Positions 25,774-61,210 of a DNA stretch of 64,000 nt are shown piece by piece. Where the stretch lies: sequence record PZ386970.1. One strand, 5' to 3'. Position numbers and translations under genes: made by a program. The DNA is from a phage. How positions within the stretch are numbered: position 1 is the first letter of the stretch; the number at the start of each line of letters is the position of its first letter. Below the pieces are notes generated by a model that was given only the letters and a program-made list of their open reading frames with translations, was not told where the DNA came from and searched no databases.

Positions 25774-25774
25774 A

Positions 25775-29432: not shown

Positions 29433-29971
29433 CATTTAATGATTTCTGTAATCAAATAATTACGTTCGCTTGCATTAAATCCTATAACTTTGTTAGCACC
29501 ATCATGATTAAGTAATTGATACGTTTGGATTTTGTTATGAATTGCAAACTCTTCAAAATATGAAATGACTGTATTAAAACCGAATGAAGACAAAGTAATA
29601 AGGTCGTCTTCAAAACTTTCAGTCATTTCGTTACGTGTTAAAATAATTGTGAACACATCATGGTTTTGGCAAAGACGAACATAATCCTGTTCATAAACGT
29701 CAAGAACCGAGTCCACATCTTGTCGAATACGTCCATAAACCCAGTTACTAATATATCCACGGTCTAACAGATAAATCTTAGTAGGGTCTAAATAATTCAA
29801 CATCGTTTCGAAACAACCAACTTCATTTCGAGACTTAACATCGAAACGCCCATCAACTGTTCGTTTAGGGAAATCAATCTTTACATATCTTTCACTAATT
29901 TCCATTATGTCATTAATGAAAGTTGTTTTACCAGCATTATCTGGGCCGTCTACTAAAATAATTTTAGCCAT
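29423..29971 (-). CDS. P-loop nucleotide kinase, thymidylate kinase-like
   Basis: Walker A ILVDGPDNAGKTT; downstream DRGY motif resembling the Tmk DRx motif; 182 aa. Confidence 0.55.
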   Translation of the reverse strand: MAKIILVDGPDNAGKTTFINDIMEISERYVKIDFPKRTVDGRFDVKSRNEVGCFETMLNYLDPTKIYLLDRGYISNWVYGRIRQDVDSVLDVYEQDYVRLCQNHDVFTIILTRNEMTESFEDDLITLSSFGFNTVISYFEEFAIHNKIQTYQLLNHDGANKVIGFNASERNYLITEIIKWAR

Positions 29972-29972
29972 T

Positions 29973-30872: not shown

Positions 30873-31588
30873 TAGTCAAGGAATCCTTTAACATAATCAA
30901 AATCACGTTCAAACACATGGGCACTTACCATGGTATGAGTATAATCACCAACTTCTACACCACATTCGTTAGCGATATAATGAAGTAATTTTCCTTGGAG
31001 ATAAAAATCCAACTGCATAACAACAGCACAATTCTGAGAACGCATATGACAGTGGGTATAAAGCTTACCATCACGAATATAATAAGTCACTGAGTCAGTA
31101 CATGGATATTCAAGCGTTTCGTCCGAATCAAGCAAAGCCTGATCAGAACTTTCTAGAATTTGGAACACAACTCTTCGGGAGTTAGGCTTCTCTTTAAGTT
31201 CTTTTAGAAGAGCTGGTAATTGGGCCGCAATTCGAGGACCATAGAAAGTGTTGAAGTTCGCAGGCAAAGCATCTGATTTTGGTTTAGAAATAAATTTAGC
31301 GACATTAGGATATGCCTTAAACGCTTCTTCTGCATCAGTACCACCAGAAATCATAAACTTCCAGAAATCTTCGGCATATTCATAAGAGATGCGGTTAATA
31401 CGTGGGTCGGTCATTTTGAATGATGATGGAGTGTCAACAACTACTGTCATGGACCCAATTTCATTACAACGTCCAATACGAGAATCAGTTACGAATTCCG
31501 GGTTTTCTAAAATTTCACGATTGACTGCTTTAAATGCGGCTTGAAAATCTGCTGCTTTGATATATTTCATTGTGTTATGTTTTCCCAT
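30872..31588 (-). CDS. 42: thymidylate synthase-family pyrimidine hydroxymethylase, gp42-like (dCMP hydroxymethylase), divergent
   Basis: KPNSRRVVFQI and PCTDSVTYYIRDGKL align with T4 gp42 NPDSRRGIMIY and MCTNTVQYLIRDKKI (catalytic Cys); 238 aa. Confidence 0.7.
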   Translation of the reverse strand: MGKHNTMKYIKAADFQAAFKAVNREILENPEFVTDSRIGRCNEIGSMTVVVDTPSSFKMTDPRINRISYEYAEDFWKFMISGGTDAEEAFKAYPNVAKFISKPKSDALPANFNTFYGPRIAAQLPALLKELKEKPNSRRVVFQILESSDQALLDSDETLEYPCTDSVTYYIRDGKLYTHCHMRSQNCAVVMQLDFYLQGKLLHYIANECGVEVGDYTHTMVSAHVFERDFDYVKGFLD

Positions 31589-31607
31589 GTTTACCTCAAT
31601 ACAATTT

Positions 31608-31633
31608 ATTATATACTCAATTCGTAAAGCTTA
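31608..31633 (-). promoter_or_regulatory. putative middle-type promoter (GCTTTAC box, 11 nt, TATAAT)
   Basis: upstream of the hydroxymethylase-like gene. Confidence 0.3.
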
Positions 31634-31870
31634 TTTGAATTTCTTGGCAATGTTGATATAACGTAAAGCTTCAGAATCTATACTTCCAAGAACACTATGA
31701 AGGAATGCATCAGTGTAGTATTCCAATTGAACAGGTTCTTTAATCACTTTAGCCGCTTTGGTTTCAAACAGGCCCATCAGGGCCTTTTTAAGAATTTGTT
31801 CGTTAGTGTTCAGTTTTATAGTCAAAATCTCTTCATTAAGTTTATAATTAAAAGTTTTTCTAGAAATCAT
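31631..31870 (-). CDS. hypothetical protein (79 aa)
   Basis: ORF only. Confidence 0.4.
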   Translation of the reverse strand: MISRKTFNYKLNEEILTIKLNTNEQILKKALMGLFETKAAKVIKEPVQLEYYTDAFLHSVLGSIDSEALRYINIAKKFK

Positions 31871-33027
31871 TCCGGGTACCTCAAAGCGTCATCAGAGTTA
31901 GTTATATCAATAATAGATATAGAGTTTTCTGCTAACCCGTTTTTAGATAATTGACGTTTATAATACCTTTCACAATATGTACACGTTGACCCACAGATTT
32001 CATTAGCACAATCAAAATCCGGATGTCTGAACCACCTTTTTTCTAAAAAGCCATCTAACAAAGAGGTTTCAATATTTACTGTATGTGAAAACTCAGTCTC
32101 ATTTTCAAGAGTGAAAATAGTCTCTAAAGGCTTCCACAGTTCTAACAAATTACCTTCAAACTTTTCAGAAGCGTATGCTTCAAGAACTTTCAAAATGTAG
32201 TCTGTGCTACCTGTACGTCCTGAAACTTTGAATTGAGTGATACCAATATCATTATAAAGTTTCAAATCTTGTGGACGAACAAAACGAGTTCTCAACCAGT
32301 TAAACGGGTCTGTATCACGAGCTTTAATACAGTGCTGCATAGGATATCCATTTAAGGATTTAGCATCATCAGCTGTAACATCAGTACTATGGAAAATATA
32401 GCAAGAGTCACGATAGCTACAATGTGTTGTATACCCTTTACCAGCATTAGAACAGAACTCATTTACAAGAACTTCAAATATTATATTGTTTTTATTGCAA
32501 AACTCTGCTGCACGCTTCAGGAAAGAAACTGAACGGTTCTTATGAATTCCACAGCAGACCTTTTTGATATTATACTGGTCATGTAAGTATTTGATTTGAG
32601 TTACAGCATCGACATGTAGAATTGTTGAAACTTCAATCTCAATGTCTTTATTGACTTCACGAACAATTTCCATAACAACAGGGTTAGCGATAGTAATACG
32701 CCATACGCCTATTGACCAAAGATACTGAACATAATCCTGAATAGCTTTCTTCTTCCACTCAACTAGTTCTCTTTTTGAACCAGGATTTATCGTGTTGAGT
32801 GTATAGTTAAAGCAAATACCTAATTCGTTACAACGTTTAACATAATCTTCTAACATCTTTTTGTCAACGTCAGGAAGCCTAAAATCAGGTCTGGCTGCTA
32901 CAAAAGCCATTTCTCTTGTAGAGCCGTATACTTCGTTTATCAAGCTATTAGGATAAGTTTTATTGAGCTCTACGATTTTATCAAGAAGAGCTAAATCAAA
33001 ATTCGTTCCGATTTTAAAAGTATTCAT
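31867..33027 (-). CDS. Cys-rich putative metalloenzyme, weak resemblance to peptidase-U32-family Fe-S proteins
   Basis: 386 aa; EVLVNEFCSNAGKGYTTHCSY resembles the U32 signature; additional C-terminal CxxxxCxxxCxxC; N-terminal pattern similar to U32 barrel. Confidence 0.35.
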   Translation of the reverse strand: MNTFKIGTNFDLALLDKIVELNKTYPNSLINEVYGSTREMAFVAARPDFRLPDVDKKMLEDYVKRCNELGICFNYTLNTINPGSKRELVEWKKKAIQDYVQYLWSIGVWRITIANPVVMEIVREVNKDIEIEVSTILHVDAVTQIKYLHDQYNIKKVCCGIHKNRSVSFLKRAAEFCNKNNIIFEVLVNEFCSNAGKGYTTHCSYRDSCYIFHSTDVTADDAKSLNGYPMQHCIKARDTDPFNWLRTRFVRPQDLKLYNDIGITQFKVSGRTGSTDYILKVLEAYASEKFEGNLLELWKPLETIFTLENETEFSHTVNIETSLLDGFLEKRWFRHPDFDCANEICGSTCTYCERYYKRQLSKNGLAENSISIIDITNSDDALRYPE

Positions 33028-33083
33028 TTTTTTGCATCTCGCGTTAATTGATGCGATGGTTTTTGCAGGTCTTACTTAAATTA

Positions 33084-33452
33084 TTATAGATTCGGTTTAT
33101 ATGATTTAAATGTTTCGAATTCGCCTTTATTCATAAGAGCTTTGAATTCGTCAGGACGCATAGCTTTGTCGTCGATAATCCAATCATATACTGGTTTATG
33201 TGTTAGCAAATTATGGTACTTCAAACCAATGTTTTCCAAGTTCTGAATCAGACTTGGGAGAATGTCAATTGCTATACGACCAGGACCTACTGACTTCATA
33301 CCACGAGCAGTGTAAAGCGTTATGGTATGCCCTGCATCATACAGGGCATTAATGGCAGACACCATTTCGACGTCTGGTTTGAAGTTCACGTAATCACGAT
33401 TGTTATTCCACTCTGTTATACAATCATCGACATCAAAACAAAGATTAAGCAT
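33084..33452 (-). CDS. small HAD-like phosphatase (122 aa from MLNLCFDVDD)
   Basis: FDVDDCIT (motif I-like), TARG, DWIIDDK (motif IV-like); resembles KdsC-type phosphatases; motif I imperfect. Confidence 0.35.
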   Translation of the reverse strand: MLNLCFDVDDCITEWNNNRDYVNFKPDVEMVSAINALYDAGHTITLYTARGMKSVGPGRIAIDILPSLIQNLENIGLKYHNLLTHKPVYDWIIDDKAMRPDEFKALMNKGEFETFKSYKPNL

Positions 33453-33469
33453 GTTTTCTACACGGTGCA

Positions 33470-35155
33470 TTAGATTCGTTCCCATTGATGAGTGATATCG
33501 CCACCGATTGGACGATAGGAAACACCAGTTTCTTTATCAGTTAGTACCCATTTACCAGGATTTTTTGTAATCAGAGTAGCCGTTACAGGTTCTGCTACGT
33601 CATAACTAATAGAGCCGTCCTGAAGTACACGGCCCATGTTACGTAATTGCTTAGTCAGAAGTTCCATGCCTTTATAATATGCGGCTACCGCTTTAAGTGG
33701 ATTATTCTTGAAATAACCACCCAATGCAATCCAGATAATTGCCACCGCCAAATGATGATACTCGTTAAACGAACTCATCTTTCCATATTTGTAAACTAAT
33801 GGATTGATGTTAATAGTCACATTACAAGTTGTTTCATCAATAGTAAACTGACCCCAGGTCGGATTAGCATTGAATTCATCATAACCTGAAACAGCATAAA
33901 GCACTTTAGCTTCATCATATAATTTTGGCCCGTAAATCTTGGTTTCACCAAAATATCCACGAGGGTCGATAAACTTGACTTCGCCGTTATCAGTAATCAT
34001 AGTATTACTGAAGTTCGGGTCACCGTGAATAACAGAGTACTGTCCCTGAGAACGGTTATGATAACGAATAAGATGTTCTAAAGCTTGTTTCAACATTGGC
34101 TTCAGACGTCCAATCTTAGTGTAGTTCACGTGTGTGATTTTACCAAATGAATCAATCAATGGCTGAATGCTTTCACAACGATCAATAACTTTCGTATAGA
34201 ACTCTTTAGTGAAATCACGGCGAACAGTTTCAGGACTTACAAAATAAGTGTCTGTGCTGAATTTCAGTGCATCTAAAATTGCATCAACAATTTGTGGACG
34301 AGCAAGACTTGATTTGGATTTAATATATTCAAATGCCGGCTTACCTTTAATGCGTTCCATTTCAAAGTTATTTTCATTAACAGAAACTAACTGAGGAACT
34401 GAATCTGATTTCACTTTCAAATACCACGAAATCTCATCTTTCTGAAGAGCTCGACCCTGTTCGGTTAATGCGAATTTAGTTACAGTTTCTTCACCAATTT
34501 CAACTGCATTAAAACTACGATTAAGTTCACGAACTTCATGAGCTTTTTCAAGTTTAGGCATATCACCTAAATCAATTATATTCATAAGCTCTGATTTATT
34601 GAATGCGCCGCTGTAAAGGAATTCTACGAAATCACGTCCTTTGCAGTATTCATGAATTTCCTCATCGGTAGAACCCATATAGAATTCCCAGTCTTTGAAT
34701 TGATAAATTCCTACAACATTACCGCCTGTTGCACCTACATTAGTGATATTTTCACCGTCGAAATTATATCGACATTCATCACCCTTAACATAGATTGCGT
34801 TAACATTCCAAGACCATGAACCAAAATCAGGAATAATATCGCACCAGTTAACAATTACGTTATGGCCGTCTAAATCTTTGTGTAATTTAGCAAGAGCATA
34901 AGCAGAACCATACGCTTCATCAACTGTACGAATAGTCACATTGAACCCTTCTTGCTCACAATAAGCTCGAACAGTTTCAGCAAATTTTGAATGAACTACT
35001 ACAATAATTTCATCTGCGCCAAGGTCAGAATAAATTGTATATAAATTGCTCAGAATAGTGTCTTGTTTATAGTTAACAAGCACCTTAGGAATATGATGCG
35101 TTATTGGATACAAACGAGTTGCCAGTCCGGCACCAAGAATAACAGCTTTTTTCAT
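33470..35155 (-). CDS. bifunctional sugar-1-phosphate nucleotidyltransferase (N-terminal) / APH-like sugar kinase (C-terminal)
   Basis: N-terminus MKKAVILGAGLATRLYPIT (GxGTRL NTP-transferase motif); C-terminus VIHGDPNFSNTMI...FIDPRG (Brenner HGDxxxxN and DxE/D kinase motifs); 561 aa. Confidence 0.65.
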   Translation of the reverse strand: MKKAVILGAGLATRLYPITHHIPKVLVNYKQDTILSNLYTIYSDLGADEIIVVVHSKFAETVRAYCEQEGFNVTIRTVDEAYGSAYALAKLHKDLDGHNVIVNWCDIIPDFGSWSWNVNAIYVKGDECRYNFDGENITNVGATGGNVVGIYQFKDWEFYMGSTDEEIHEYCKGRDFVEFLYSGAFNKSELMNIIDLGDMPKLEKAHEVRELNRSFNAVEIGEETVTKFALTEQGRALQKDEISWYLKVKSDSVPQLVSVNENNFEMERIKGKPAFEYIKSKSSLARPQIVDAILDALKFSTDTYFVSPETVRRDFTKEFYTKVIDRCESIQPLIDSFGKITHVNYTKIGRLKPMLKQALEHLIRYHNRSQGQYSVIHGDPNFSNTMITDNGEVKFIDPRGYFGETKIYGPKLYDEAKVLYAVSGYDEFNANPTWGQFTIDETTCNVTININPLVYKYGKMSSFNEYHHLAVAIIWIALGGYFKNNPLKAVAAYYKGMELLTKQLRNMGRVLQDGSISYDVAEPVTATLITKNPGKWVLTDKETGVSYRPIGGDITHQWERI

Positions 35156-35183
35156 GTTGTGGTCCTCATTGGTAAGTAGGTGT

Positions 35184-35208
35184 ATTGTACACTATTCTAG
35201 TTAAAGCA
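35184..35208 (-). promoter_or_regulatory. MotA-type middle promoter (TGCTTTA, 12 nt, TACAAT) upstream of the nucleotidyltransferase-kinase gene
   Basis: exact MotA box core with canonical spacing to a TAnnnT -10. Confidence 0.45.
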
Positions 35209-35340
35209 TTCATACTTTGCCTGTAGACCAATCATAATCCATCCAATTACAAGTGTTGGAATCATTACTGGAGCCGTTAAGCTCCAGTAGATAGTCATGA
35301 CAAGCATCAATAGTAAAAGTCCTATTGTTATTGCTTTCAT
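35197..35340 (-). CDS. small membrane protein (47 aa)
   Basis: manual translation MKAITIGLLLLMLVMTIYWSL...; TAATG-coupled to SIS gene stop. Confidence 0.3.
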   Translation of the reverse strand: MKAITIGLLLLMLVMTIYWSLTAPVMIPTLVIGWIMIGLQAKYECFN

Positions 35341-35972
35341 TATTCGCCTCGTAACATGGCACCTAGTGCACCGCCAGGGTGGAACTTAAGGAAGTCATTA
35401 GAGGTAAATCCACGTTCAGAAGAAAGGTTGATAGCAAACGTATCGATAAGCGCTAACAACAATGTAGTGGACATTGTCGGAGCTAAAGAGTTCTCATCGA
35501 CCTCTACCGCGATGCCTGTACAGAAAGAGTAATCAAAAAGGGCTTCATTTTCTTGCGGAATGTCAGGGTTACAATGTAACAGAATCTGTTTAACCTGAGG
35601 ACGAATCATACGAAGATGTTTAGCAACACCTATCATTTCTTCGGTCTTACCAGAACGACTAATATGAATCAACACATCATTAGGCGCAATGAATCCTGCA
35701 TCACCGTGAGAATAATGCCCGGTGTTCAAGTACATACTAGGAATACCTAGTGAAGCAAATGTCTCAGAAGCTTTAGTTGCAATATTAGCATTCTTACCAA
35801 CACCTGTAATAATTACTCGGCTTTCATAATTACTAAGTCCTGGGCGTCGAAGAGTTTCTAGAATAGCATTATAACGAGCAGGGTTTTGACTAATTACTTT
35901 GGCCATAGTAGCCAAAGAAGAAGCTTGTTTTATGATTGCGTCAATAGCGATAGTGATTGGTGTAGTTTTCAT
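35340..35972 (-). CDS. SIS-domain sugar-phosphate isomerase, KdsD/GutQ-like (arabinose-5-phosphate isomerase-like), no CBS domains
   Basis: VIITGVGKNANIATKASETFASLGIPS...HISRSGKTEE and FLKFHPGGALG match the KdsD SIS domain; 210 aa. Confidence 0.7.
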   Translation of the reverse strand: MKTTPITIAIDAIIKQASSLATMAKVISQNPARYNAILETLRRPGLSNYESRVIITGVGKNANIATKASETFASLGIPSMYLNTGHYSHGDAGFIAPNDVLIHISRSGKTEEMIGVAKHLRMIRPQVKQILLHCNPDIPQENEALFDYSFCTGIAVEVDENSLAPTMSTTLLLALIDTFAINLSSERGFTSNDFLKFHPGGALGAMLRGE

Positions 35973-42178: not shown

Positions 42179-43867
42179 TTATGAAACAGTCATCACAGTA
42201 AATCGTCCAACTTTGCTCATTTGAAGATGTTGTCCATAAGCTTGTGGGTCATGGTCTCTGTGACTAATTATAAACACGTTTGCATCGGTTAGAGAGTTAA
42301 GAATTGTTGAAATAGCTTTAATACCTTCAGAATCAGTCGCTGAATCCATGACTTCGTCCATAATTAATGTATTGATTCTAACACCAGAGACCTTTTCAGC
42401 AATATCTCGCCATGTAAACAACAATGCGATATCGATACGTGCCTTTTCACCTTGACTAAATGAAGCATAACTAAAATCTTCACGGCCACGTGATTTTATA
42501 GATTCATTGAATTCTTCGTCAATAGAAAACACGTAATCAGCTTCCATGATTTTAAGATAATGGTTAATCTGCTTGTTGAACAGAGGCACATATTTTTTAA
42601 TGATAGCACCTTTAATACCAGAATCTTTTAACATATCTGTGATAATACCACGATGGTATTTTTCAAGAACGATATCTGATTTTGTTTTAATGATTTTATC
42701 AAGTTCTTTTTGAAGCAAAGCTATCTCATCGGCATGGTCGATAAATTCTGCTGAGGCTTGTTCTATTGCAGCTTTAACTTTCTTAGCTTTATCAATAGTG
42801 GCAATCATTGCTTGTTTCTTGGTACGAATATCAGATGCAAGGTCCTGTTTAGTCTTAACATTAGCTCTATATTCGTCCACTAGGACACTCAGATTATCTC
42901 TGTGACAGGTAAGTTGCTCGAATGAGTGATTACATTCATGAAGCTTATCGGTAATCTTAGAGACAATAGGATCACCCTGGTGCAACTGTGATGCGCAAGT
43001 AGGACATGTACCGCCATCATGATACATCTTAATAACTTTGTTATATGAGTCAATTTTAGATTTAATCAAGAATGCTTCTTGTCCTATCTTGTTGAATGCC
43101 TCAGTAGGATCTTCATCAAGAACGATATTAAGTAGTCGCTCATTAGCTTCTTCGATTTCTGCTTTTAATGAACGAGCTTCTTTGGCTAGGTCGTCATACA
43201 TATTCTGTAGACGCGCTACATTATCACCAGATAATTTCTTTTGACGTTCGATATTATCGTTATAAATCTTAATTTGTTGGATAATACCATCTTTCTTGGC
43301 ATCAAGAACTTGTCCCTGGGAATTAAGTTCTCGAACTTGAGACTTATTGATTTTATCCATTTCAGCGAGTGTGCCAACTTCTAAAAGGTCTTCGACAAGT
43401 TTTCTACGAGCAGGGGTGCTAAGAGCCATGAAAGGGGTATACCCTGCCGTCCCAAGCACAACGATTTGTTTAAAAGACGCGTATGACATTCCGATGCTAC
43501 GTTCAAATTCTTCTTGGAAGTCACGACTGCTGGCAGATTCATCGAGACGAACACCGTCAACGGAGATTTCGAAAATATTGGGCTTTTGGCCGCGTTTAAT
43601 GAAGTATTTTTTATCATCGAATTCCATCCAAAGCTCAACTAAGAGCTCTTTCTTGTTCGTGCTATTAATGATTTGTCCTTTCTTAACATCACGAAATGGT
43701 TTACCGAAAAGTCCGAAAGTAATGGCTTCTAACATCGTAGATTTACCACCGCCGTTTTTACCGGTGATTAATGTCTTTTGGACTTTATCTAATTGGATAT
43801 CAATAGGATTCCCACCTACCGACATGATGTTTTGATAACGAACACGATTTAATTTAAATGATTTCAT
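42179..43867 (-). CDS. 46: recombination nuclease subunit gp46 (SbcC/Rad50-like ATPase)
   Basis: 562 aa; Walker A GKNGGGKST, coiled-coil middle, CPTC zinc hook-like, C-terminal DE Walker B. Confidence 0.9.
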   Translation of the reverse strand: MKSFKLNRVRYQNIMSVGGNPIDIQLDKVQKTLITGKNGGGKSTMLEAITFGLFGKPFRDVKKGQIINSTNKKELLVELWMEFDDKKYFIKRGQKPNIFEISVDGVRLDESASSRDFQEEFERSIGMSYASFKQIVVLGTAGYTPFMALSTPARRKLVEDLLEVGTLAEMDKINKSQVRELNSQGQVLDAKKDGIIQQIKIYNDNIERQKKLSGDNVARLQNMYDDLAKEARSLKAEIEEANERLLNIVLDEDPTEAFNKIGQEAFLIKSKIDSYNKVIKMYHDGGTCPTCASQLHQGDPIVSKITDKLHECNHSFEQLTCHRDNLSVLVDEYRANVKTKQDLASDIRTKKQAMIATIDKAKKVKAAIEQASAEFIDHADEIALLQKELDKIIKTKSDIVLEKYHRGIITDMLKDSGIKGAIIKKYVPLFNKQINHYLKIMEADYVFSIDEEFNESIKSRGREDFSYASFSQGEKARIDIALLFTWRDIAEKVSGVRINTLIMDEVMDSATDSEGIKAISTILNSLTDANVFIISHRDHDPQAYGQHLQMSKVGRFTVMTVS

Positions 43868-44112
43868 ATGTATTCTCTTCGAATGAAGTCCTCTACATAT
43901 TTTAACATGTCATCCCTATCAGCAAAATATTCATCTAGTTCTGCATACATAACAACACCTGGTGCGTACTCACAGGTAACATACATTGTTCCAAAGAAAC
44001 GAGGAGTTGATTCCTCGTAATTCTCAGTCCATTCTACGATACCAAAATAACCGTCGCCAATACTAAATTCATGGCGCTGGTATTCATTAGTCTTCGTAGT
44101 CATTATAAGCAT
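43864..44112 (-). CDS. hypothetical protein (82 aa)
   Basis: ORF; 46.1 position. Confidence 0.4.
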   Translation of the reverse strand: MLIMTTKTNEYQRHEFSIGDGYFGIVEWTENYEESTPRFFGTMYVTCEYAPGVVMYAELDEYFADRDDMLKYVEDFIRREYI

Positions 44113-44347
44113 CCTCGATGCAGGCTTCAGCCATTTTCAGAAGAGAACCAGGAGTATCACCGTCCATTACATTGAAACTGAATTCCACAGCCCAGTCTGT
44201 ACAGACACGAACTGCTTTAACTTCACCGTCTTCAACTCGTAATGGTTCAATCCAGTATTTCACTGTGTTCTCGAATCCATCATCATCTTTAACGTCTATT
44301 TCAACTTCAAGCCCGAGCCCAGCATTGTTAAATTCATCTAAAGTCAT
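44087..44347 (-). CDS. hypothetical acidic protein (86 aa)
   Basis: ORF; 46.2 position. Confidence 0.4.
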   Translation of the reverse strand: MTLDEFNNAGLGLEVEIDVKDDDGFENTVKYWIEPLRVEDGEVKAVRVCTDWAVEFSFNVMDGDTPGSLLKMAEACIEDAYNDYED

Positions 44348-45363
44348 TGTGTTGCCTCAATATAAAGTTCGTTGGAATATTTGACCAGCGCTTCTCTGTC
44401 TTCGTCTGAGATATCTGGAATCGCATCAATATATTCTTTAATGATATCTTGAAGTGATTTAATCTCGATTTCCTGGTCGTCATCGGATTCAACACTGTTA
44501 TCAACTTTAGAAACCATACGAAGAGAGTGAACTACTTTTTCAAGTTCAGATTCAAACTTAGTCAATTCTGAATCAATTTCTGATACTATAACACGTACGG
44601 CTAGATTAGTATAATCAGAATAATTGATTTTGCCTTTAAACGGATAAGTGATTCGTCGATGCCATGTTGTTTCATTAGGAATAAATTCCATACGTTCAAC
44701 ATCAGTGTCAAATACCCAGAATCCGCGCGGGTCATTCTCATCGCCTGCAGTAAGGGTCCATGGTGTCCCAATATATTTGACGTTAGCAGCTTCAGAGATT
44801 GTGTGGAAGTGGCCAGACCAGACTTGTTTATAGGTCTTTAAGAAATCAGGTTCAAGCCCATGAGACTTCATTCCTTTATAGAAATAAAAGCCATTCAGTT
44901 CCCAGTGTCCAACACAATACGCAGCAGAAGAAGTCTTGATGTGCTCTAAGATTTCACCTGTATTTTCTTCACACATCCATGGAATTAAATCAATCAGACA
45001 CCCATCGAAATCAACAGTCGTAGGTTTATCATAAATAACAACATTTTTACGATGAGACAAAAGCTCTTGGGTTGTATTAGGGTATAAAGTTGTCTTATAA
45101 AAAAGGTCGTGGTTACCCAAAATAGTGTGAACGGTTATTCCAGCGTTTTCAGCCATATCAAATAATTCACGAGTAAACTCCATACAACGTTGTGTTGTGT
45201 GAGCTCGTACATCAAATACGTCCCCGTACTGTATCCATGTTGTTATTCCATTTTTAACAGAATAATCCACCATTTGTTTGAATCCGTGTCGTTGGATGTT
45301 TTGAATCCAAACATCATCCTTTTTTACACCTAAGTGCAAATCGCCCACGTTAAGAATTTTCAT
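44344..45363 (-). CDS. 47: recombination nuclease subunit gp47 (SbcD/Mre11-like phosphoesterase)
   Basis: MKILNVGDLHLG, GNHD, GHxH phosphoesterase motifs; start trimmed to MKILNVG. Confidence 0.9.
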   Translation of the reverse strand: MKILNVGDLHLGVKKDDVWIQNIQRHGFKQMVDYSVKNGITTWIQYGDVFDVRAHTTQRCMEFTRELFDMAENAGITVHTILGNHDLFYKTTLYPNTTQELLSHRKNVVIYDKPTTVDFDGCLIDLIPWMCEENTGEILEHIKTSSAAYCVGHWELNGFYFYKGMKSHGLEPDFLKTYKQVWSGHFHTISEAANVKYIGTPWTLTAGDENDPRGFWVFDTDVERMEFIPNETTWHRRITYPFKGKINYSDYTNLAVRVIVSEIDSELTKFESELEKVVHSLRMVSKVDNSVESDDDQEIEIKSLQDIIKEYIDAIPDISDEDREALVKYSNELYIEATQ

Positions 45364-46177
45364 ATTGCACCTTAAATTTACCATAAATTATACTGTGATA
45401 ACTTAAATCAGGAAAACCTTCTGCGACGGCTAAAGGTCTAAACTTCTTAGGACTTATTCTACCACATTTTACCCAAAGAGTATATAGTGCTTCATAATAT
45501 TCAAATAATGGTCCTTTACGAGCTTCAGAAACAGTTTTACGCACTTTGTCCTTTATTGACGGGTCTAAATTTCTAAGGGTTTCACTAATTTTGTTTCGAT
45601 GGGTTTCATTAATAAGATTTCCTTTAACCCAGCCTTCAGGTTCAGTCCCTGGGACAAACATTTTCTTTTCTTTGCCATTATTATACCATTTGCGACCTTT
45701 ATTGTGACTAGAGGCTTTATATTCAGGAGAACGACCTTTTACATTACCTTCTGGTATATAAGGTAGAAAACTTTGTTCTAACGTTTCAGGGTTGTATGAG
45801 TGTATATGGCCTTTACCATTATGTGAGCCGTACAATGGGTGCTCTTCTTTTGGAAGTGATAATCCGAAAAATCCTTTAGGAGCAGCAATTGCTTTATTCA
45901 TATACATCGGGTTATTGGCAGCATCCACCTTTAGTTGGAGTAAACGTTCAGCTTTTGTCGCTTCTTCTCTTGTGGCGTGTTCACTTACAATACATGAATC
46001 AAAAAGATGTGGATTCATTTTTAGTTCAGAATTGTAAATTTCCTTATACGCTTTTGATAAAACCGTTCCGTGATATCCAGCTTTATGTTTTGCAATATTT
46101 GTGGAACCTATATAAAACGGTGGAAGTTTGTCACCATCATAAATCGTAAAATATACTATGTACATGTTATTCTCCAT
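45350..46177 (-). CDS. GIY-YIG homing endonuclease (Seg-like) with NUMOD-type repeats
   Basis: MYIVYFTIYDGDKLPPFYIGST GIY-YIG-like core; repeated basic GKxHxxYN / KGRKWYNNG motifs; occupies the T4 alpha-gt slot next to 47. Confidence 0.6.
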   Translation of the reverse strand: MENNMYIVYFTIYDGDKLPPFYIGSTNIAKHKAGYHGTVLSKAYKEIYNSELKMNPHLFDSCIVSEHATREEATKAERLLQLKVDAANNPMYMNKAIAAPKGFFGLSLPKEEHPLYGSHNGKGHIHSYNPETLEQSFLPYIPEGNVKGRSPEYKASSHNKGRKWYNNGKEKKMFVPGTEPEGWVKGNLINETHRNKISETLRNLDPSIKDKVRKTVSEARKGPLFEYYEALYTLWVKCGRISPKKFRPLAVAEGFPDLSYHSIIYGKFKVQYENS

Positions 46178-46185
46178 TTTGTATA

Positions 46186-46220
46186 GAAATTACTATATCA
46201 TAGTTTATACTGTTTGTAAA
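46186..46220 (-). promoter_or_regulatory. early-type promoter (GTTTACA, 18 nt, TATAGT)
   Basis: drives the GIY-YIG gene. Confidence 0.5.
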
Positions 46221-46227
46221 CCCTAGA

Positions 46228-46254
46228 AACGAGAAAAGGAACTCCGAAGAGTTC
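46228..46254 (-). terminator. UUCG-tetraloop terminator (GGAACUC-UUCG-GAGUUCC plus U-rich tail)
   Basis: 7-bp stem followed by UUUUCUCGUUU. Confidence 0.55.
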
Positions 46255-46428
46255 CTATCCACATAGTACACCGTACAGAGGCTCATTTGAACTTTTAAAT
46301 CGAATGGGCTTGTATGTAATAGTTCCTTCGGCAGAAGCTTTATCATAAGACTCTTTAAAACGTCTCATTCTTTCTGCTTTGCCTTTACGGATTTTATCGA
46401 AATTTTCAGAAGTCGGGATGTTCGTCAT
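46255..46428 (-). CDS. hypothetical small basic protein (about 57 aa)
   Basis: manual translation MTNIPTSENFDKIRKGKAERMRRF...; coordinates approximate to 1 nt. Confidence 0.25.
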   Translation of the reverse strand: MTNIPTSENFDKIRKGKAERMRRFKESYDKASAEGTITYKPIRFKSSNEPLYGVLCG

Positions 46429-46467
46429 GCATAAGCACCTCTCAGAAAATGCCTAAATCGATTTCTC

Positions 46468-46674
46468 TCATCGTTTCCACCATTTCTTAACTTGAAATGA
46501 ATCAACCCACACGAGTTGTTTTGGGTCTGCCTTTACAATAGGCAGACAAATTTCTGTAATAGAACCGTCGTGATATTCCTTTTCAGAAATTTTAACACAA
46601 AGAGGACCTCCCAATTTAAGGGTGAACCCTGCGTTCAGCTTCAGACGTTTAAACTTTGTTTGAACTAGCGCCAT
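46468..46674 (-). CDS. hypothetical protein (about 68 aa)
   Basis: ORF; start uncertain. Confidence 0.3.
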   Translation of the reverse strand: MALVQTKFKRLKLNAGFTLKLGGPLCVKISEKEYHDGSITEICLPIVKADPKQLVWVDSFQVKKWWKR

Positions 46675-46972
46675 TAATGATGTCCTCAATAGCCTGACGA
46701 GTAGTAACCCACTGGATTTTAATTAACTTGTCATTATATGGTTGTCGTAGAATATCCCGAGATTTCTTAATAGCATATTCGTAAGCTTCGAAGTTGTTTT
46801 GAATTGCTGCTTCTTGAGCATGAGCATAAAGACGGTTTAGCTCAAAACGATTCTTTTTAAGAATCTTTTCGGATTTTTTACGTGCTTCAGCTTCATTTTT
46901 CTTTTGTATTTCTTGTAGCATTTTGGCTACTGCATCTTCTGCTTCTTTATTTTCAATAATCTCGGTAGTCAT
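46649..46972 (-). CDS. hypothetical protein (107 aa)
   Basis: ORF only. Confidence 0.45.
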   Translation of the reverse strand: MTTEIIENKEAEDAVAKMLQEIQKKNEAEARKKSEKILKKNRFELNRLYAHAQEAAIQNNFEAYEYAIKKSRDILRQPYNDKLIKIQWVTTRQAIEDIINGASSNKV

Positions 46973-46973
46973 A

Positions 46974-47189
46974 TTATCTCATTAAATTAAAATAAAAACG
47001 TCCGTCCTCTTCAATACAGAACTCGTACTCAACTGGAGTCCCATTTATCGAAAATGACACGTCATGTGGGTTCAAAGGGTCGATGTCAAAATTAATTTTA
47101 AATTCTCTACCCAACAGTTTTACCAAATAAGGGATTGCTTCGTCAAAAGGTTCTTCTAAGTAGTTAGAGATGTCAATTGTTATCCTCAT
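46974..47189 (-). CDS. hypothetical protein (71 aa from MRITIDIS)
   Basis: track start overlaps gene 55 by 95 nt; trimmed. Confidence 0.35.
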
Positions 47190-47730
47190 ATAAAAAATCC
47201 AAACTAGGCGAATCGCTAACAACTTCCTTCTTTTCAGCCCCAGGAGCTTTATAAGCTGATTCTTCATAATGCGTCATTTTATCGTAGATGTCTTGAATAA
47301 ACGTTTCATCTACCAACGCTACCATATCATCGTCATGACTGTCGTAGACATTATGAACGAAGTAACTATATTTCTTTGCAACTTCCTTACGTTCTTTTTT
47401 GATACGTTGGACAAAAGCATTAAAACAAGCTCGAGTTATGTATGCATGTGGGTTATTGTACTTAGTTTCGTCGAAATTATGAAGTCCCTTAATAGAGGCT
47501 TCAATCCCATCTGCAATCATCTCCTGCTTCCAAGACTGGGTATATCCTGAAAAGTTGAAACGTTTGGACAGGCCTTCGGCGATAAGCATAATTGCTAAAC
47601 CGATGGTATCATTCTGACGAATAATTTTGTTTGGGTCTTTATTATTTAAGAGCTCCTTTTTCCACTCGATTATAGCGGCGAGAAGCTCTTTATTATTCAC
47701 ATAGTTATTTTTAGGTTTTTGTTCAGTCAT
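47173..47730 (-). CDS. 55: late sigma factor gp55
   Basis: 185 aa; [24 protein letters not shown]...; matches T4 gp55. Confidence 0.85.
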
Positions 47731-47754
47731 AAGTACCTCTTAGCTCAATTCATA

Positions 47755-47790
47755 GGTCTATTATATCATAATATTTAGAGACCTATCTTA
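47755..47790 (-). promoter_or_regulatory. promoter upstream of gene 55 with TATAAT and flanking inverted copies of the ATAGGTCT motif
   Basis: TATAAT then AGACCTATGAATTG; second ATAGGTCT copy in opposite orientation replaces the usual -35. Confidence 0.4.
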
Positions 47791-47802
47791 AAGCACGAGA
47801 TA

Positions 47803-48072
47803 CTATCGGAGCAAACAATAAGCCTGAAACACTTTTTCCATTAAACGTTTGAACTCATGGATATCGATATAAAGCTCAGTAAGACCGGCATTATAAAGAA
47901 AATCTAAAAAGTTCTCATGTGTTTCGTTATAGTCGCCTTCGTTTAATTGAGATACATGAGTTTCCCAAAAACCAACACCTTTAACGAATGGAAAATACGT
48001 GACTTTCATGTATTCGTCAACATAAAATTCGCCAAGCTTTTCTTCTGTTATAGAAATTCGAGATAGTTTCAT
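47803..48072 (-). CDS. hypothetical protein (89 aa)
   Basis: ORF only. Confidence 0.45.
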   Translation of the reverse strand: MKLSRISITEEKLGEFYVDEYMKVTYFPFVKGVGFWETHVSQLNEGDYNETHENFLDFLYNAGLTELYIDIHEFKRLMEKVFQAYCLLR

Positions 48073-48296
48073 TCTATTTCCTTTGCTGCTTCAAGAGCAG
48101 CATCCAGCGAATCAAATTGGTCAACGAAATCAATATTCAACGCATCGTCAACCGTAGCATATAACCACCATTGTTTGAATTCATATTCTAGGATAAATCC
48201 AGGCCCTTCAATCTGAGGAAGACCTAGACTATTTGTACCAACTTCGTAACCAGCTAGACGCAGGTCATTAATCAAAGTTTCTGTTAATACGCTCAT
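48069..48296 (-). CDS. hypothetical acidic protein (75 aa)
   Basis: ATGA-coupled. Confidence 0.45.
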   Translation of the reverse strand: MSVLTETLINDLRLAGYEVGTNSLGLPQIEGPGFILEYEFKQWWLYATVDDALNIDFVDQFDSLDAALEAAKEIE

Positions 48297-48673
48297 TTTA
48301 CCGCCTTAACAATTTTCAGGTCAGCGAATTTTTTCTTACGTTGATTTTTCATACGACGGATAGTCTTTTCAGAGATTTCATGTTTCTGATAAGCTTTAGA
48401 TTCAACACCAAATGCAGCAACGTCAAATTCAGAAAGAATATATTGTACTAGAATTTCACGAATAGAATTACGTCCAATTTTCTGGTCGTGTTTTTGCATG
48501 ATTTCATAAAGACGGAATTCCCACGCGTCAAGAACTTGAGGAGTAACAATATTGCCGGATTCCAGAAGAGCAACAACTTTATCGAAAGCGAAAGAATTAA
48601 CTACGTTTTTGATTTTAGTAGACATATTATTTTCCTCGGTTATTTTATTATCCAACGAGAGAATTATACTCAT
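48293..48673 (-). CDS. hypothetical protein (126 aa)
   Basis: ORF only. Confidence 0.45.
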   Translation of the reverse strand: MSIILSLDNKITEENNMSTKIKNVVNSFAFDKVVALLESGNIVTPQVLDAWEFRLYEIMQKHDQKIGRNSIREILVQYILSEFDVAAFGVESKAYQKHEISEKTIRRMKNQRKKKFADLKIVKAVK

Positions 48674-51454: not shown

Positions 51455-52751
51455 TGGTGTTTAACCCTATGCATGATTTCTTTATTTTTACCGAGATTAA
51501 ATCCGCGTTCGTTCGGATTTCCCAAATAGCCGCATGTTCTTCTTATGGTGTTCATCTTTTTAGGATCAGTTTCTCCACAAACTGAACAAACAAATCCGTT
51601 TTCAGTAGGAGTCATTTCATGAGTACTTCCGCATGTAAAACATTTATCCACTGGCATATTAACACCAAAATAATCTAAATGTTGTGCAGCATAATCCCAG
51701 ACAGCCTCAAGACCCTTTAAATTGTTTTTCATATCTGGAAGTTCAACATAAGAAATGTGACCACCTGTCGCAATGAAATGATATGGCGCTTCACGAGAAA
51801 TCTTTTCAAATGGAGTAATATTTTCTTCTACTGAAACATGGAAACTGTTAGTGTACCAGCCTTTATCGGTAACATCTTTTACACTTCCATATTTTTCTGT
51901 GTCTAGTTTACAGAAACGATAACAAAGGTTTTCAGCAGGAGTAGAATACAAACTAAAAGCAAATCCAGTTCTTTCAGTCCACTGTTTAAGATGAGCATTC
52001 ATTTTAGTTAAAATTTCTTGCCCAATATCACGACCAACAAGAATATTCAATTCATGAATACCAATGTATCCTAAAGACACTGAACTTCTACCATTTTTAA
52101 ATAACTCAATTATGTCATCATCAGGTTTAAGACGAACCCCGAATGCACCTTCTTGGTAAAGAATAGGAGCAACAGTCGCTTTAACTCCTTTTAAGGAACT
52201 AATTCTACACATCAAAGCTTCAAAACATAAATCCATTCGTTCATTGAATAATTCAACAAATTTCTGTTCATTGAACTGTGTTCCAATATAAGAATCTAAT
52301 GCGATACGAGGAAGATTCAGTGTTACAACACCGAGATTATTACGTCCATCAAGAATTTCATTACCAGTCGAATCTTTCCATACACTCAAGAAACTACGGC
52401 AGCCCATTGGAGAAACAGGAACAGATGAACCGGTAATAGCTTTATTATTCTTAACAGAAATAATGTCAGGATACATTCTTTTGCTTGCACATTCTAACGC
52501 AAGTTGTTTAATATCATAGTTCGGATCATCTTTATAAAGATTAACACCCTCTTCAACAAACATAACAAGTTTAGGAAAAATAGGAGTTATCCCATCACGA
52601 CCAAGACCTTTAATACGATTTTTCAGAATTGCTTTCTGAATCATTCGTTCAGTCCAGTCAGTTCCCGTACCAAATGTAATTGTTACAAAAGGCGTTTGTC
52701 CATTAGAGCTGAAAAGTGTATTTACTTCATCATTATATTCAGCATGAGTCG
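51451..52751 (-). CDS. nrdD: anaerobic ribonucleoside-triphosphate reductase NrdD, exon 2
   Basis: C-terminal CxxC...C and glycyl-radical region (RTCGYLG); 5' boundary predicted from intron terminal G and reading-frame continuity. Confidence 0.75.
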
Positions 52752-52756
52752 CAAAT

Positions 52757-53527
52757 TCATGCCCGTTTATATGAAACAACAAAATTTGGATAGTCCATAG
52801 ATATGCAACGTTCTTTTATAGTGCTAGGATGAAAATTTAGCGCTTTAGCTGCTTCTATATAAGACGTATACTTAATACCGTCAACAACCACATATTCAGG
52901 AACTTTATGAATAGTAGTCTTAATACTCAAAACAAGAGGATGAGTTTCGACTTCACTTTCAGTGCAATTTAAATATTCCGCTGCTTTTTTAAAACTTCTA
53001 AAAGTTTTATTTTTAAGCTTTATCGATACTTGTTTTTTACTTTTTCGACTATTGATATTATTTTGCACATGTTCCTTAGATCTTCCATTTTTAGCATAAT
53101 ATTCAGCTACAGAAGATTTTATATTGTTTTTATGAGATTTGGATAACACTTTACCCTTATGAGCATCTCTTAATTTTTGAATATGTTCTTCAGTATCCGG
53201 ATGTTTATAAAACTTTTTACCGCCTATGGATTTATTTAAACATTTTTTGCTATAAAAATATTTACGTATGACCTCTTCTTCATGTTTTAATGCATCTTTA
53301 TAACTATCAAATGTTTTTAAAATTATCCATTTAGTAGGTGTATCAGTTTTTAAGCGTTCATTTATATACTTAGATGACGTTGTGTAAGTTTTCCAGTTTG
53401 TGGGCTTGTTTTTAATTGTTCTAAATTTTTTATAACCGATATAAATGTCGCCATTAGAAAACTTAACTAAGTATGTAAATGCGTCTTTATCTTTTATTTT
53501 AGTACAACGTCTTTTTATCCATTTCAT
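52757..53527 (-). CDS. intron-encoded GIY-YIG homing endonuclease (I-TevII-like)
   Basis: 256 aa; FTYLVKFSNGDIYIGYKKF GIY-YIG core, NUMOD-like repeats, C-terminal HTH-like IKYTSYIEAAKALNFHPSTI; own RBS GAGGTG. Confidence 0.75.
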   Translation of the reverse strand: MKWIKRRCTKIKDKDAFTYLVKFSNGDIYIGYKKFRTIKNKPTNWKTYTTSSKYINERLKTDTPTKWIILKTFDSYKDALKHEEEVIRKYFYSKKCLNKSIGGKKFYKHPDTEEHIQKLRDAHKGKVLSKSHKNNIKSSVAEYYAKNGRSKEHVQNNINSRKSKKQVSIKLKNKTFRSFKKAAEYLNCTESEVETHPLVLSIKTTIHKVPEYVVVDGIKYTSYIEAAKALNFHPSTIKERCISMDYPNFVVSYKRA

Positions 53528-53556
53528 TGTTTCACCTCGTATTCATAAGATAATCT

Positions 53557-53564
53557 TATTTATA
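53557..53564 (-). promoter_or_regulatory. late promoter TATAAATA inside the intron, upstream of the homing endonuclease ORF
   Basis: exact TATAAATA about 30 nt before the ATG; T4 intron endonucleases are late-expressed. Confidence 0.5.
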
Positions 53565-53776
53565 CAAGATGACTGCTGCATGTCGCCATGCAGATTAGAC
53601 TATATCTTCATCTTTCGATGCCGGCCGTTTCGAATAGCATTAGCTTCTATTCTACACCGTTACATTCATCACGGTTAGTCGTTAGGCATTTAGTTCAAAA
53701 GAACATTTAGCACGGGATTGTCTTACTAGAGAGGTTCCCCGTTTAGACCGGTTTTACATGAGCCTGAATTAAATTA

Positions 53777-54314
53777 ACTCATACGCCTGAAATGCATCGT
53801 ATACATCTTTTTCTGTTTTAGATTGAGCATAATTCAACGCATCAGCGATTTGCCATTTTTCTGCATCCTCAATATGTTTTGCATAGGTGCGTTTAACATA
53901 AGGAGAAAGTACTTTATCTACATTTGCAAAAGTCGTTCCGCCGTATTGATGGGAAGCAACCTGTGCAGTAATTTGTGCCATAATTGCAGTAGCAACGCCA
54001 ATTGATTTAGGAGTTTCAATCTGTGCATTACCTAGCTTAAATCCATTTTCAAGCATTCCTTTTAAATCTACTAAACAGCAATTAGTAAAAGGAAGAGCAG
54101 GGGAATAATCAATATCGTGCACGTGAATAATTCCGCTTTCATGCGCTTTCATAATAAAAGACGGGACCATATTTTTGGCAATGTGTTTAGACACAATACC
54201 AGCCATAAGGTCCCGTTGAGTTGGAAAAACACGAGAATCTTTATTAGCATTCTCGTTCAAAAGATCTTTATTAGTTTTATGAATTAATCCTTCAATTTCT
54301 TTTTCAATTTTCAT
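53777..54314 (-). CDS. nrdD: anaerobic ribonucleoside-triphosphate reductase NrdD, exon 1
   Basis: 181-aa ORF ends in a stop just inside the intron; exon ends at U of GAGU predicted by P1 pairing. Confidence 0.75.
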
Positions 54315-60934: not shown

Positions 60935-60974
60935 TCGATAGGTCTATAATAACATGTTTAAAGCAAAAGTAAAC
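60935..60974 (-). promoter_or_regulatory. early-type promoter (family A)
   Basis: GTTTAC, 17 nt, TATTAT then AGACCTATCGAAAC. Confidence 0.55.
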
Positions 60975-60976
60975 AA

Positions 60977-61195: not shown

Positions 61196-61210
61196 TTTGT
61201 TCTCCTCTTG

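Follow-up and report, generated by a model that had tools for sequence, protein, structure and literature searches.

In T4, the genes a-gt.2, mobB, a-gt, 47.1 and 47 follow one another in this order. In the 64 000-nucleotide stretch of phage DNA analysed here (record PZ386970.1; hereafter, the window), which comes from a Mosigvirus (RB69 group), a putative nuclease gene is found between a-gt.2 and gene 47 (Table 1), and the question is whether this gene replaced the alpha-glucosyltransferase gene a-gt or is a mobile element unconnected with it. We consider it quite probable that the ORF encodes a Seg-type GIY-YIG homing endonuclease carried by a mobile cassette of ∼1.2 kb that entered an RB69-like genome at the a-gt.2/gene 47 junction, and that the absence of a-gt is an unrelated matter.

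Table 1. Features of the region between a-gt.2 and gene 47 (positions in the window)
Feature	Position	Strand	Basis or detail
Longest ORF, 275 aa	45350..46177	-	ORF list and sequence
CDS of the predicted Seg-like GIY-YIG homing endonuclease, free-standing	45350..46165	-	starts at the likely ATG, 46165; 271 aa
Shine-Dalgarno GGAG of the nuclease	46172..46175	-	6 nt ahead of the ATG at 46165, read from the sequence
Predicted N-terminal catalytic GIY-YIG domain	45878..46165	-	residues ∼5-100, 275-aa numbering
Motifs of the GIY-YIG domain			T-I-Y13, Y22-I-G24, K30 (K/R across the family), E77, N94
Extended linker, two beta-hairpin repeats and a NUMOD3-like stretch (ETHRNKISETL)	45608..45877	-	
C-terminal helical DNA-binding domain, helix-turn-helix/Myb-like (predicted)	45353..45607	-	
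Gene 47 (Mre11/SbcD-like recombination nuclease subunit), chimeric	44344..45363	-	LF82-4/JS09 annotation and identity profile
Shine-Dalgarno AAGGTG of gene 47	45368..45373	-	within the last nuclease codons, read from the sequence
Foreign tract compared with nuclease-less Mosigviruses	45000..46233	.	mismatch map against JS09; ends approximate
T4-early-type promoter-like site, GTTTACA-17-TGaTATAGT	46192..46220	-	directly upstream of the nuclease
Intrinsic-terminator-like hairpin, AGGAACTC-TTCG-GAGTTCCT then T run	46237..46256	-	scan
a-gt.2 homologue, 57 aa, conserved upstream neighbour	46255..46428	-	JS09 annotation ‘a-gt.2'

Gene boundaries and predicted fold

The second ATG, at 46165, is the likely start of the nuclease gene, rather than the one at 46177, because of the GGAG located 6 nt upstream and because the LF82-4 and P0001 versions of the protein are annotated or called at 271 aa. 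The TAA stop codon (45352-45350) sits 14 nt within gene 47, the ATG of which is at 45363-45361; the 14-nt overlap given in the preliminary description is correct, and the nuclease gene indeed lies immediately upstream of gene 47.

A Pfam search with the nuclease sequence retrieved no family at E ≤ 1 and, hence, no GIY-YIG model; an I-TevII-like protein encoded in the same window, the control for this search, does match PF19835. A PDB sequence search produced no match with either the single sequence or a 40-sequence profile, and NCBIfam yielded nothing useful, with the GIY-YIG domain going unrecognized; the sole NCBIfam line, RelB antitoxin (E = 0.0066, 16.5 bits against a cutoff of 50), was rejected as noise. 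The GIY-YIG assignment is a prediction that rests on fold and profile evidence, not on curated sequence models, and the several lines of this evidence agree. The AF2 model (pLDDT 86.7) has a predicted beta-beta-alpha-alpha-beta-alpha core, with a three-stranded sheet flanked by helices, and the top three Foldseek matches are all to the catalytic domain of I-TevI; hhalign comparison with a Seg/I-TevI alignment gives a probability of 95.9% and lines up the YIG and Asn motifs; and BLASTP matches SegG by the N-terminus and SegA by the C-terminus, all in accord with the Seg-like GIY-YIG nuclease originally proposed. The close homologues of the protein span E-values from 1e-181 to 1e-18, and the PHROG 314 label is ‘homing endonuclease'.

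Both motifs of the GIY/YIG pair are present, the first one as a variant, TIY rather than GIY (T11-I12-Y13), and the second one as Y22-I23-G24; none of Y13, Y22, I23 and G24 varies among 40 homologues, and hhalign places FYIGS of the nuclease on VYVGS of I-TevI. Equally invariant are the predicted catalytic residues E77 and N94, of which N94 aligns with N90 of I-TevI and E77 falls one residue off E75 within ‘ERE', the Glu-Asn spacing being 17 residues in the nuclease versus 15 in I-TevI. The position of Arg27 of I-TevI is taken by Lys or Arg (position 30) in the family, with a gap in the hhalign alignment at this place, and Y35-x-G37 is invariant. The linker contains the hairpin repeats HPLYG...PEGxVKG and GRKWYNNG...PEGWVKG, its strand pairs 125-138 and 163-174 are present in the AF2 model, and relatives of the nuclease carry Pfam NUMOD3 (PF07460). 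Structural matches of the C-terminal part include HTH, so that the predicted protein has the Seg architecture, an N-terminal GIY-YIG domain with a separate C-terminal DNA-binding module.

Among the known systems, I-TevI (td intron; PDB 1LN0/1MK0), the top structural match for the catalytic domain, follows the same three-part plan of catalytic domain, extended linker and C-terminal helix-turn-helix at ∼13-17% identity, but is intron-encoded, has a cleavage site no more than 25 bp away from its insertion site and possesses a linker zinc finger that is not seen in the nuclease. The best named sequence match is T4 SegG, the gene of which lies between 32 and 59. The catalytic domains are 30% identical over 116 aa and share the PP(F/Y)YIGS and AER...NP.Y.N motifs, and segG is likewise a free-standing gene adjoining an essential gene of DNA metabolism; SegG differs in the locus (32 versus 47 here) and in the C-terminal domain, and the resemblance is weaker than what Pfam or PDB sequence searches pick up, with nuclease activity being putative in the present case. 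T4 SegA, encoded between uvsX and beta-gt, is 27% identical over 52 aa in the C-terminal helical DNA-binding domain, shows a weak N-terminal match and has the same overall architecture, but differs in the locus, the target (uvsX) and the linker.

Database labels point elsewhere: the LF82-4 record, RefSeq records of the homologues and PHROG 10820 all name an HNH endonuclease. No HNH-family Pfam model matches the nuclease even at E ≤ 1, however, the conserved motifs are YIG, E and N, not H-N-H, and no HNH nuclease is among the listed structural matches, which makes this identity exceedingly improbable.

Distribution of the nuclease and structure of the inserted tract

Full coverage of the query was obtained, among the matches listed, in one of the 729 matching phage records, that of LF82-4; the other 39 records listed, with ∼98% identical flanks, lack ∼822 nt, and in them a-gt.2 runs straight to gene 47. 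The 95-99% identity band comprises 148 records. In JS09, a-gt.2 and 47 are separated at the empty site by a 69-nt spacer, and a metagenomic contig (L014) is identical to LF82-4. Thus, among the closely related Mosigvirus records listed, the nuclease gene is limited to two near-identical phages, the one in the window and LF82-4, the only one to share its allele (98.5% identity). As with Seg genes, this is a stand-alone gene, located between the conserved a-gt.2 and 47 and sporadic among close relatives; it is a recent, sporadic insertion.

The same slot is occupied in other phages. Tequatrovirus G9062 has a 61% identical homologue, inserted cleanly (594 bp) where 47.1 meets 47, and further same-slot homologues are found in Mosigvirus AV109, Dhakavirus KIT01, Aeromonas phage avDM3 and a metagenomic contig (L015). 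Altogether, the gene-47-adjacent homologues (AV109, KIT01/IME08, G9062, many Tequatroviruses, KPV15, avDM3/avDM5, FBB1 and LC53) form a family with 41-69% identity, have the same orientation, are inserted immediately 5' of the gene 47 ATG and are mostly labelled ‘hypothetical' or ‘HNH endonuclease'; their C-terminal domains vary, and most Tequatrovirus copies, of ∼207 aa, are devoid of the HTH. The N-terminal domain is encoded by 162 IMG/VR stretches; since only the closer relatives (≥54% identity) are located upstream of gene 47, this domain is widespread at other loci too. No paper describing a gene-47-adjacent nuclease was found in the literature.

The insertion involves more than the nuclease gene. 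The foreign tract, which is sharply delimited, comprises, besides this gene, the promoter region and ∼365 nt at the 5' end of gene 47, and reaches ∼57 nt upstream of the nuclease; the upstream flank is identical to JS09 at 292 of 300 positions. Compared with JS09, gene 47 is 65.5% identical over nt 1-365 and 97.9% over nt 366-1020, and the gp47 protein 63.6% over aa 1-121 and 100% over aa 122-339. This profile suggests that the first ∼121 codons of gene 47 (∼45000..45363) arrived with the cassette. The foreign segment of gene 47 has no close donor in the collections (best identity, 76%). Its N-terminal allele, ‘GDLHLGVKKDD...VRAHTTQRCMEFTRE', is common to the long-type cassettes AV109 and L015 and is unlike those of JS09, T4 and G9062; the nuclease and this ‘AHTTQRC' allele are coupled in the three closest long-type cassettes (window/LF82-4, AV109 and L015). 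A universal link between the two was considered and rejected because it fails for KIT01, L016, L017, G9062 and avDM3; in KIT01, L016, L017 and G9062, nuclease homologues lie beside a standard-type gene 47 allele. The base composition of positions 43000..48500 carries no foreign signature, and an Rfam scan of the whole window detected no family at the gathering score.

The promoter-like site upstream of the nuclease scores 10/12 in the consensus scan, with a TG extension, and falls inside DNA that is missing from the nuclease-less genomes; AV109, a diverged sister cassette, has the same layout (a hairpin, GTTTAC...TATAAT and GGAG before the ATG). The region contains seven such sites versus 5.6 expected from shuffling, which is no excess. 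The claim of an own early promoter finds support in this candidate sigma-70/T4-early-type site (46220..46192, minus strand), which lies in the inserted DNA and, if functional, would direct transcription of the nuclease gene and probably also of gene 47. The terminator that was also ascribed to the nuclease does not belong to it: the only terminator-like hairpin (46256..46237) directly follows a-gt.2, is identical in nuclease-less JS09 and is the a-gt.2 terminator, because it lies upstream of the promoter and occurs in genomes without the nuclease. This hairpin delimits the insertion on the upstream side without belonging to it; the scan found no terminator between the nuclease and gene 47. Pfam DUF5486 is found at the a-gt.2 position in L014 and L015.

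Alpha-glucosyltransferase and DNA modification

The preliminary description placed the nuclease in the position of T4 a-gt and connected it with loss or replacement of that gene and a non-glucose modification chemistry. If the nuclease took the place of a-gt, marking or causing the loss of the latter and the switch in modification, the interval between a-gt.2 and 47 would look as it does, with the nuclease alone where T4 has mobB, a-gt and 47.1. An Agt or Bgt homologue, named at the outset as the finding that would speak against this reading, was not detected at a significant level: tblastn with T4 Agt and Bgt gave no match in the window at E ≤ 10 and nothing significant in LF82-4, the closest relative, the complete genome of which was searched alongside the window (best E = 0.044 over 69 aa). 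The absence of a homologue is valid only at the BLAST level, because the arabinosyltransferases themselves are reported to be distant GT-B relatives of Agt/Bgt at the fold level (PMC6024577).

The replacement is, nevertheless, already contradicted, and we consider it very improbable. The nuclease did not replace a-gt because G9062 has an intact a-gt side by side with the homologous nuclease, cleanly inserted at the 47.1/47 junction, and it is not tied to the absence of a-gt because RB69-group genomes without a-gt come with or without the nuclease, the other listed Mosigvirus records lacking both. Only the approximate map region was thus right: the actual slot is the 47.1/47 junction, distinct from that of a-gt, and all that is shared with Agt/Bgt is roughly where the genes lie with respect to 55 and 47, with no similarity in sequence or fold between GT-B glycosyltransferases and a nuclease. 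T4 gene 47.1 was also considered as a nuclease remnant, and this was rejected, there being no similarity and 47.1 being retained in G9062 with the nuclease inserted after it. The MobB-like protein that the window encodes at 8857..9669 is, for its part, truly related to T4 MobB.

The modification chemistry itself is old in the genus and has been published: Mosigvirus is devoid of Agt/Bgt, and its modified cytosine is arabinosylated instead. The window encodes a copy of RB69p003, the assigned arabinosyltransferase (99.2% identity), and its ORFs are collinear with the LF82-4 region matching the RB69 gp45-55 arabinose/5-hydroxycytosine cluster; in RB69, the arabinose chemistry is encoded elsewhere than at this locus, by RB69p003 and gp45-55 (PMC6024577, PMC13326640). 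The non-glucose part of the original suggestion, therefore, holds, the arabinosylation genes being present, and the part that involves the nuclease does not.

Homing and its implications

Intronless homing with co-conversion has reportedly been shown for T4 SegF/gene 56 and SegG/gene 32. Under this mechanism, in a mixed infection, the nuclease would act on a phage lacking the cassette and cut both strands of its DNA within or close to the 5' third of gene 47; the break would be resected and repaired from the cassette-bearing genome, and the repair would copy the nuclease gene together with the adjoining stretch of gene 47. The foreign gene 47 segment would then be a cleavage-resistant allele, and gene 47 of the nuclease-less relatives the predicted target. 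The tract, which extends both into gene 47 and upstream of the nuclease, resembles the usual footprint of intronless homing and is consistent with a presumed co-conversion event; cleavage, the cut site and homing by this nuclease are all what we infer from the analysis. Seg homing and distant cleavage sites have been described (PMC2988022), and SegG is documented to co-convert the gene next to it from a cut site some distance away (PMC2988022).

The foreign gene 47 tract could also stem from ordinary mosaic recombination among T4-like phages, the cassette being a passive passenger and the nuclease inactive, decaying or retained for other reasons (marker exclusion, regulation of gene 47). Several observations are compatible with this: the tract is only 65-76% identical to anything known; the crossover points match conserved sequence, namely the hairpin and the YDKPTTVDFDG-coding region; many of the Tequatrovirus homologues are short and lack the C-terminal domain; and the ribosome-binding site of gene 47, probably along with its promoter, is now in the cassette. 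We consider passive transfer unlikely because the nuclease ORF is full length and retains all the residues that are invariant in the alignment of 40 homologues, because the comparison with the LF82-4 allele gives dN/dS of 0.13 (8 synonymous and 4 non-synonymous changes), and because the insertion point recurs in at least five genera, as is typical of site-specific homing.

The gp47 protein is an Mre11-like nuclease on which T4 homing itself depends, and the hypermodifications differ between the genera, with glucosyl-hmC in Tequatrovirus and arabinosylated cytosine in Mosigvirus. We tentatively suggest, with more doubt than confidence, that this ORF, together with its relatives, represents a Seg family without a name of its own and specialized for gene 47, missed by the curated GIY-YIG models and mislabelled HNH, that moves as a cassette of promoter, nuclease and cleavage-resistant N-terminal third of gp47 and crosses T4-like genera with different cytosine hypermodifications.

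The practical value is mainly corrective and concerns the a-gt inference and the HNH label: that a-gt is missing is already known for the whole genus of RB69-like phages and should not be read from this ORF, and the common label ‘HNH endonuclease' for this family is wrong, the predicted fold being GIY-YIG. Beyond that, the locus would be one more case of intronless homing making an essential gene mosaic, with the first 121 residues of gp47 swapped for a version that is 64% identical. If the cassette does cross genera, the enzyme must cut differently hypermodified DNA, and it would be a candidate for studying how arabinosylated phage DNA, as opposed to glucosylated, is dealt with by homing nucleases.

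Fold and kinship of the nuclease

Database searches with the nuclease encoded between a-gt.2 and gene 47 yielded no matches in Pfam at E ≤ 1, only noise in NCBIfam, and no match among PDB sequences with either the single protein or a 40-sequence profile. The AlphaFold2 model, with 40 homologues as input (mean pLDDT 86.7), consists of a beta-beta-alpha-alpha-beta-alpha N-terminal core, a middle region with two beta-hairpins and a C-terminal domain of five helices. The top three Foldseek matches are all to the I-TevI catalytic domain (1ln0, 1mk0; probability 0.96-0.97, target-normalised TM 0.55-0.60), followed by the GIY-YIG domain of UvrC. Profile comparison with an alignment of I-TevI, SegA, SegF, SegG and other Seg-like proteins from T4, the window and LF82-4 (the closest relative, which also carries the nuclease) gave 95.9% probability, aligning FYIGS with VYVGS and N94 with I-TevI N90. 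BLASTP detects T4 SegG at the N-terminus (30% over 116 aa) and T4 SegA at the C-terminus (27% over 52 aa). Residues Y13, Y22-I-G24, E77 and N94 are invariant in the 40 homologues, several relatives contain Pfam NUMOD3, the position of I-TevI Arg27 is Lys/Arg in the family, and the catalytic Glu aligns with that of I-TevI one residue out of register. Because of this structural and profile evidence, the Seg-like GIY-YIG assignment in the preliminary description is upheld and the 'HNH' database label is wrong, the predicted fold being GIY-YIG.

PHROGs assigns the nuclease to phrog_10820 ('HNH endonuclease') and phrog_314 ('homing endonuclease'). PHROG 10820 and the RefSeq/GenBank entries for homologues systematically call the family 'HNH endonuclease' despite its predicted GIY-YIG fold, a mislabel that is likely to propagate.

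The incoming cassette

The 3.5 kb around the nuclease ORF match 729 phage records, and the top 148 (95-99% identity) include the RB69-group Mosigvirus JS09, APCEc01 and phiC120; gene order in the window is that of LF82-4 and RB69, and the protein counterpart of RB69p003 is nearly identical. Among the matches listed, of the 729, LF82-4 alone contains the whole query (98.5% identity), and the other 39 records match both flanks at ~98%, with a span shorter by ~822 nt. In JS09, which lacks the nuclease, a 69-nt spacer separates a-gt.2 from gene 47; RB69 is annotated in the same way, according to notes in the JS09 record. The nuclease is a recent, sporadic insertion.

Features of the nuclease region and of the modification genes in the window
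Feature	Position	Strand	Evidence or remark
Nuclease ORF, 275 aa	46177 to 45350	minus	longest ORF
GGAG (Shine-Dalgarno)	6 nt upstream of second ATG at 46165	minus	sequence
Gene 47 ribosome-binding site AAGGTG	45373-45368	minus	within final codons of nuclease ORF
Sigma-70 site, T4-early type (G-TTTACA, 17 nt, TG-a-TATAGT)	46220..46192	minus	26 nt before ATG
Terminator-like hairpin	46256..46237	minus	upstream of nuclease promoter
Gene 47, 5' part	nt 1-365		65.5% identity to JS09
Gene 47, remainder	nt 366-1020		97.9% identity to JS09
gp47, N-terminal part	aa 1-121		63.6% identity to JS09
gp47, remainder	aa 122-339		100% identity to JS09
RB69p003 homologue	7714..8814	minus	99.2% identical
ORF run collinear with LF82-4 genes	~29423..35972	minus	position and domain content

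Compared with JS09, the upstream edge of the divergent tract lies just past the a-gt.2 terminator hairpin (last divergent base ~46233) and the downstream edge ~365 nt into gene 47, near 45000. These edges, together with the step in gene 47 identity, indicate that the incoming DNA was a ~1.2-kb cassette comprising the promoter region, the gene for the nuclease and, from gene 47, a foreign 5' third. There is no close donor of the gene 47 segment in the phage collection (top match 76%), and base composition does not mark out the tract. The nuclease gene differs from that of LF82-4 by eight synonymous and four non-synonymous changes (dN/dS 0.13); a metagenomic contig (L014) matches LF82-4 exactly.

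Translation most likely starts at the second ATG, because of the preceding GGAG and because the closest database copies, in LF82-4 and P0001, are annotated or called there (271 aa). The TAA at 45352-45350 ends the ORF 14 nt into gene 47 (ATG at 45363-45361), exactly the overlap originally noted. The predicted early-type promoter, a good sigma-70 match, falls within the inserted DNA, and the 61% identical AV109 cassette has a matching layout (hairpin, GTTTAC...TGtTATAAT, then GGAG ahead of the ATG), which supports a cassette-borne promoter; in a promoter scan, sites in the region are no commoner than in shuffled sequence. The hairpin is identical in genomes without the nuclease and terminates a-gt.2 rather than forming part of the nuclease unit, and no terminator separates the nuclease from gene 47. 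Thus, of the early promoter and terminator previously ascribed to the nuclease, only the promoter is retained; the start codon, the terminator and the exact slot are corrected here.

The gene 47 slot and cytosine modification

The T4 gene order is 55, a-gt.5 to a-gt.2, mobB, a-gt, 47.1, 47. Tequatrovirus G9062 has a-gt plus a 207-aa nuclease homologue (61% identity); with T4 as reference, the homologue forms a clean insertion of 594 bp where 47.1 meets 47. The nuclease slot thus adjoins the a-gt slot but is distinct from it, and in G9062 both genes coexist. The preliminary description, which put the nuclease where T4 encodes a-gt, was therefore right on the neighbourhood but not on the slot; its structural observations largely stand, whereas the suggestion that the nuclease is linked to loss of a-gt is unsupported.

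Co-oriented homologues whose ends reach or overlap the start of gene 47 are found in Mosigvirus AV109, Dhakavirus KIT01, Aeromonas phage avDM3, a metagenomic T4-like contig (L015) and more isolates; more distant catalytic-domain copies are frequent in environmental phage contigs, where they sit at other loci. AV109 (3190..4313), with AV114-AV118, represents a second Mosigvirus lineage in which a nuclease of 61% identity occupies the same site; this copy has a hairpin and GTTTAC...TATAAT promoter of its own, no a-gt.2 or a-gt.3 is annotated upstream, and gene 47 is of the same unusual 5' allele class. The copies in G9062 (3492..4115) and many Tequatrovirus records (~207 aa) lack the C-terminal helix-turn-helix and adjoin a standard T4-type gene 47 in which divergence does not extend over a long tract; truncation is one possibility, a different specificity another. 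In an IMG/VR contig (L033, ~1351..2845), a catalytic-domain homologue lies beside a distant gp47 homologue in divergent orientation.

With T4 Agt and Bgt as queries, tblastn found no match in the window and nothing significant in the assembled complete LF82-4 genome (best E 0.044, 69 aa). This absence holds at the BLAST level only, because the arabinosyltransferases are reportedly GT-B enzymes distantly related to Agt/Bgt (PMC6024577). The ~29423..35972 run includes ORFs resembling a kinase, a thymidylate synthase and a U32 peptidase, together with a 299-aa ORF in the gp46:47 position, a nucleotidyltransferase/kinase fusion and a SIS isomerase. Among its Pfam matches are thymidylate-synthase-like, peptidase U32, nucleotidyltransferase and SIS domains, and the LF82-4 annotations are thymidylate kinase, thymidylate synthase, peptidase, phosphoheptose isomerase and arabinose 5-phosphate isomerase. 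On the basis of position and domain content, we take this run to be the counterpart of the RB69 gp45-55 cluster; direct comparison with RB69 covered RB69p003 only, the run being matched through LF82-4 collinearity. Since the RB69 genes assigned to arabinosylation of modified cytosine (PMC6024577, PMC13326640) have counterparts in the window, the earlier suggestion of a non-glucose chemistry is correct, and this chemistry is already known for Mosigvirus, independent of the nuclease.

Other insertions and the proposed homing

A MobB-like endonuclease gene (8857..9669, minus strand, likely ATG 9654) separates the RB69p003 homologue from gene 39. It is the second homing-endonuclease insertion of a sporadic kind, missing from LF82-4 (~786-nt insertion) and RB69 (42-nt spacer); its product is 45% identical to T4 MobB over 116 aa and contains NUMOD3 motifs. 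The nrdD gene is split by ~1.04 kb (~52738..53778), an insertion that LF82-4 lacks, with a minus-strand ORF (52757..53527) whose GIY-YIG product shares 56% identity with T4 I-TevII (Pfam SegE_GIY-YIG). Over 2.85 kb, the entire nrdD region aligns at 84.7% with T4 nrdD including its group I intron, and Rfam finds no group I intron at gathering score. Segments 25525..26330 and 60956..61603 also diverge from LF82-4, failing to align or aligning at just 88-94% identity.

Those Seg enzymes of T4 that have been characterised cleave a conserved gene nearby, hundreds of bp away from their own, and are inherited along with flanking markers (PMC2988022). By analogy, the nuclease would cut the allele without it within, or close to, the first 365 nt of gene 47, and repair from a cassette-bearing genome would copy the nuclease gene together with the adjacent, presumably cleavage-resistant gene 47 segment; we infer cleavage, target and homing alike from this analogy. 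The three closest long-type cassettes (window/LF82-4, AV109 and L015) share one distinctive gp47 N-terminal allele, GDLHLGVKKDD...VRAHTTQRCMEFTRE, and JS09, T4 and G9062 have the standard allele. This association, which is absent for homologues with other C-terminal domains, could reflect shared cassette ancestry. The nuclease is an ordinary free-standing homing endonuclease of a known type.
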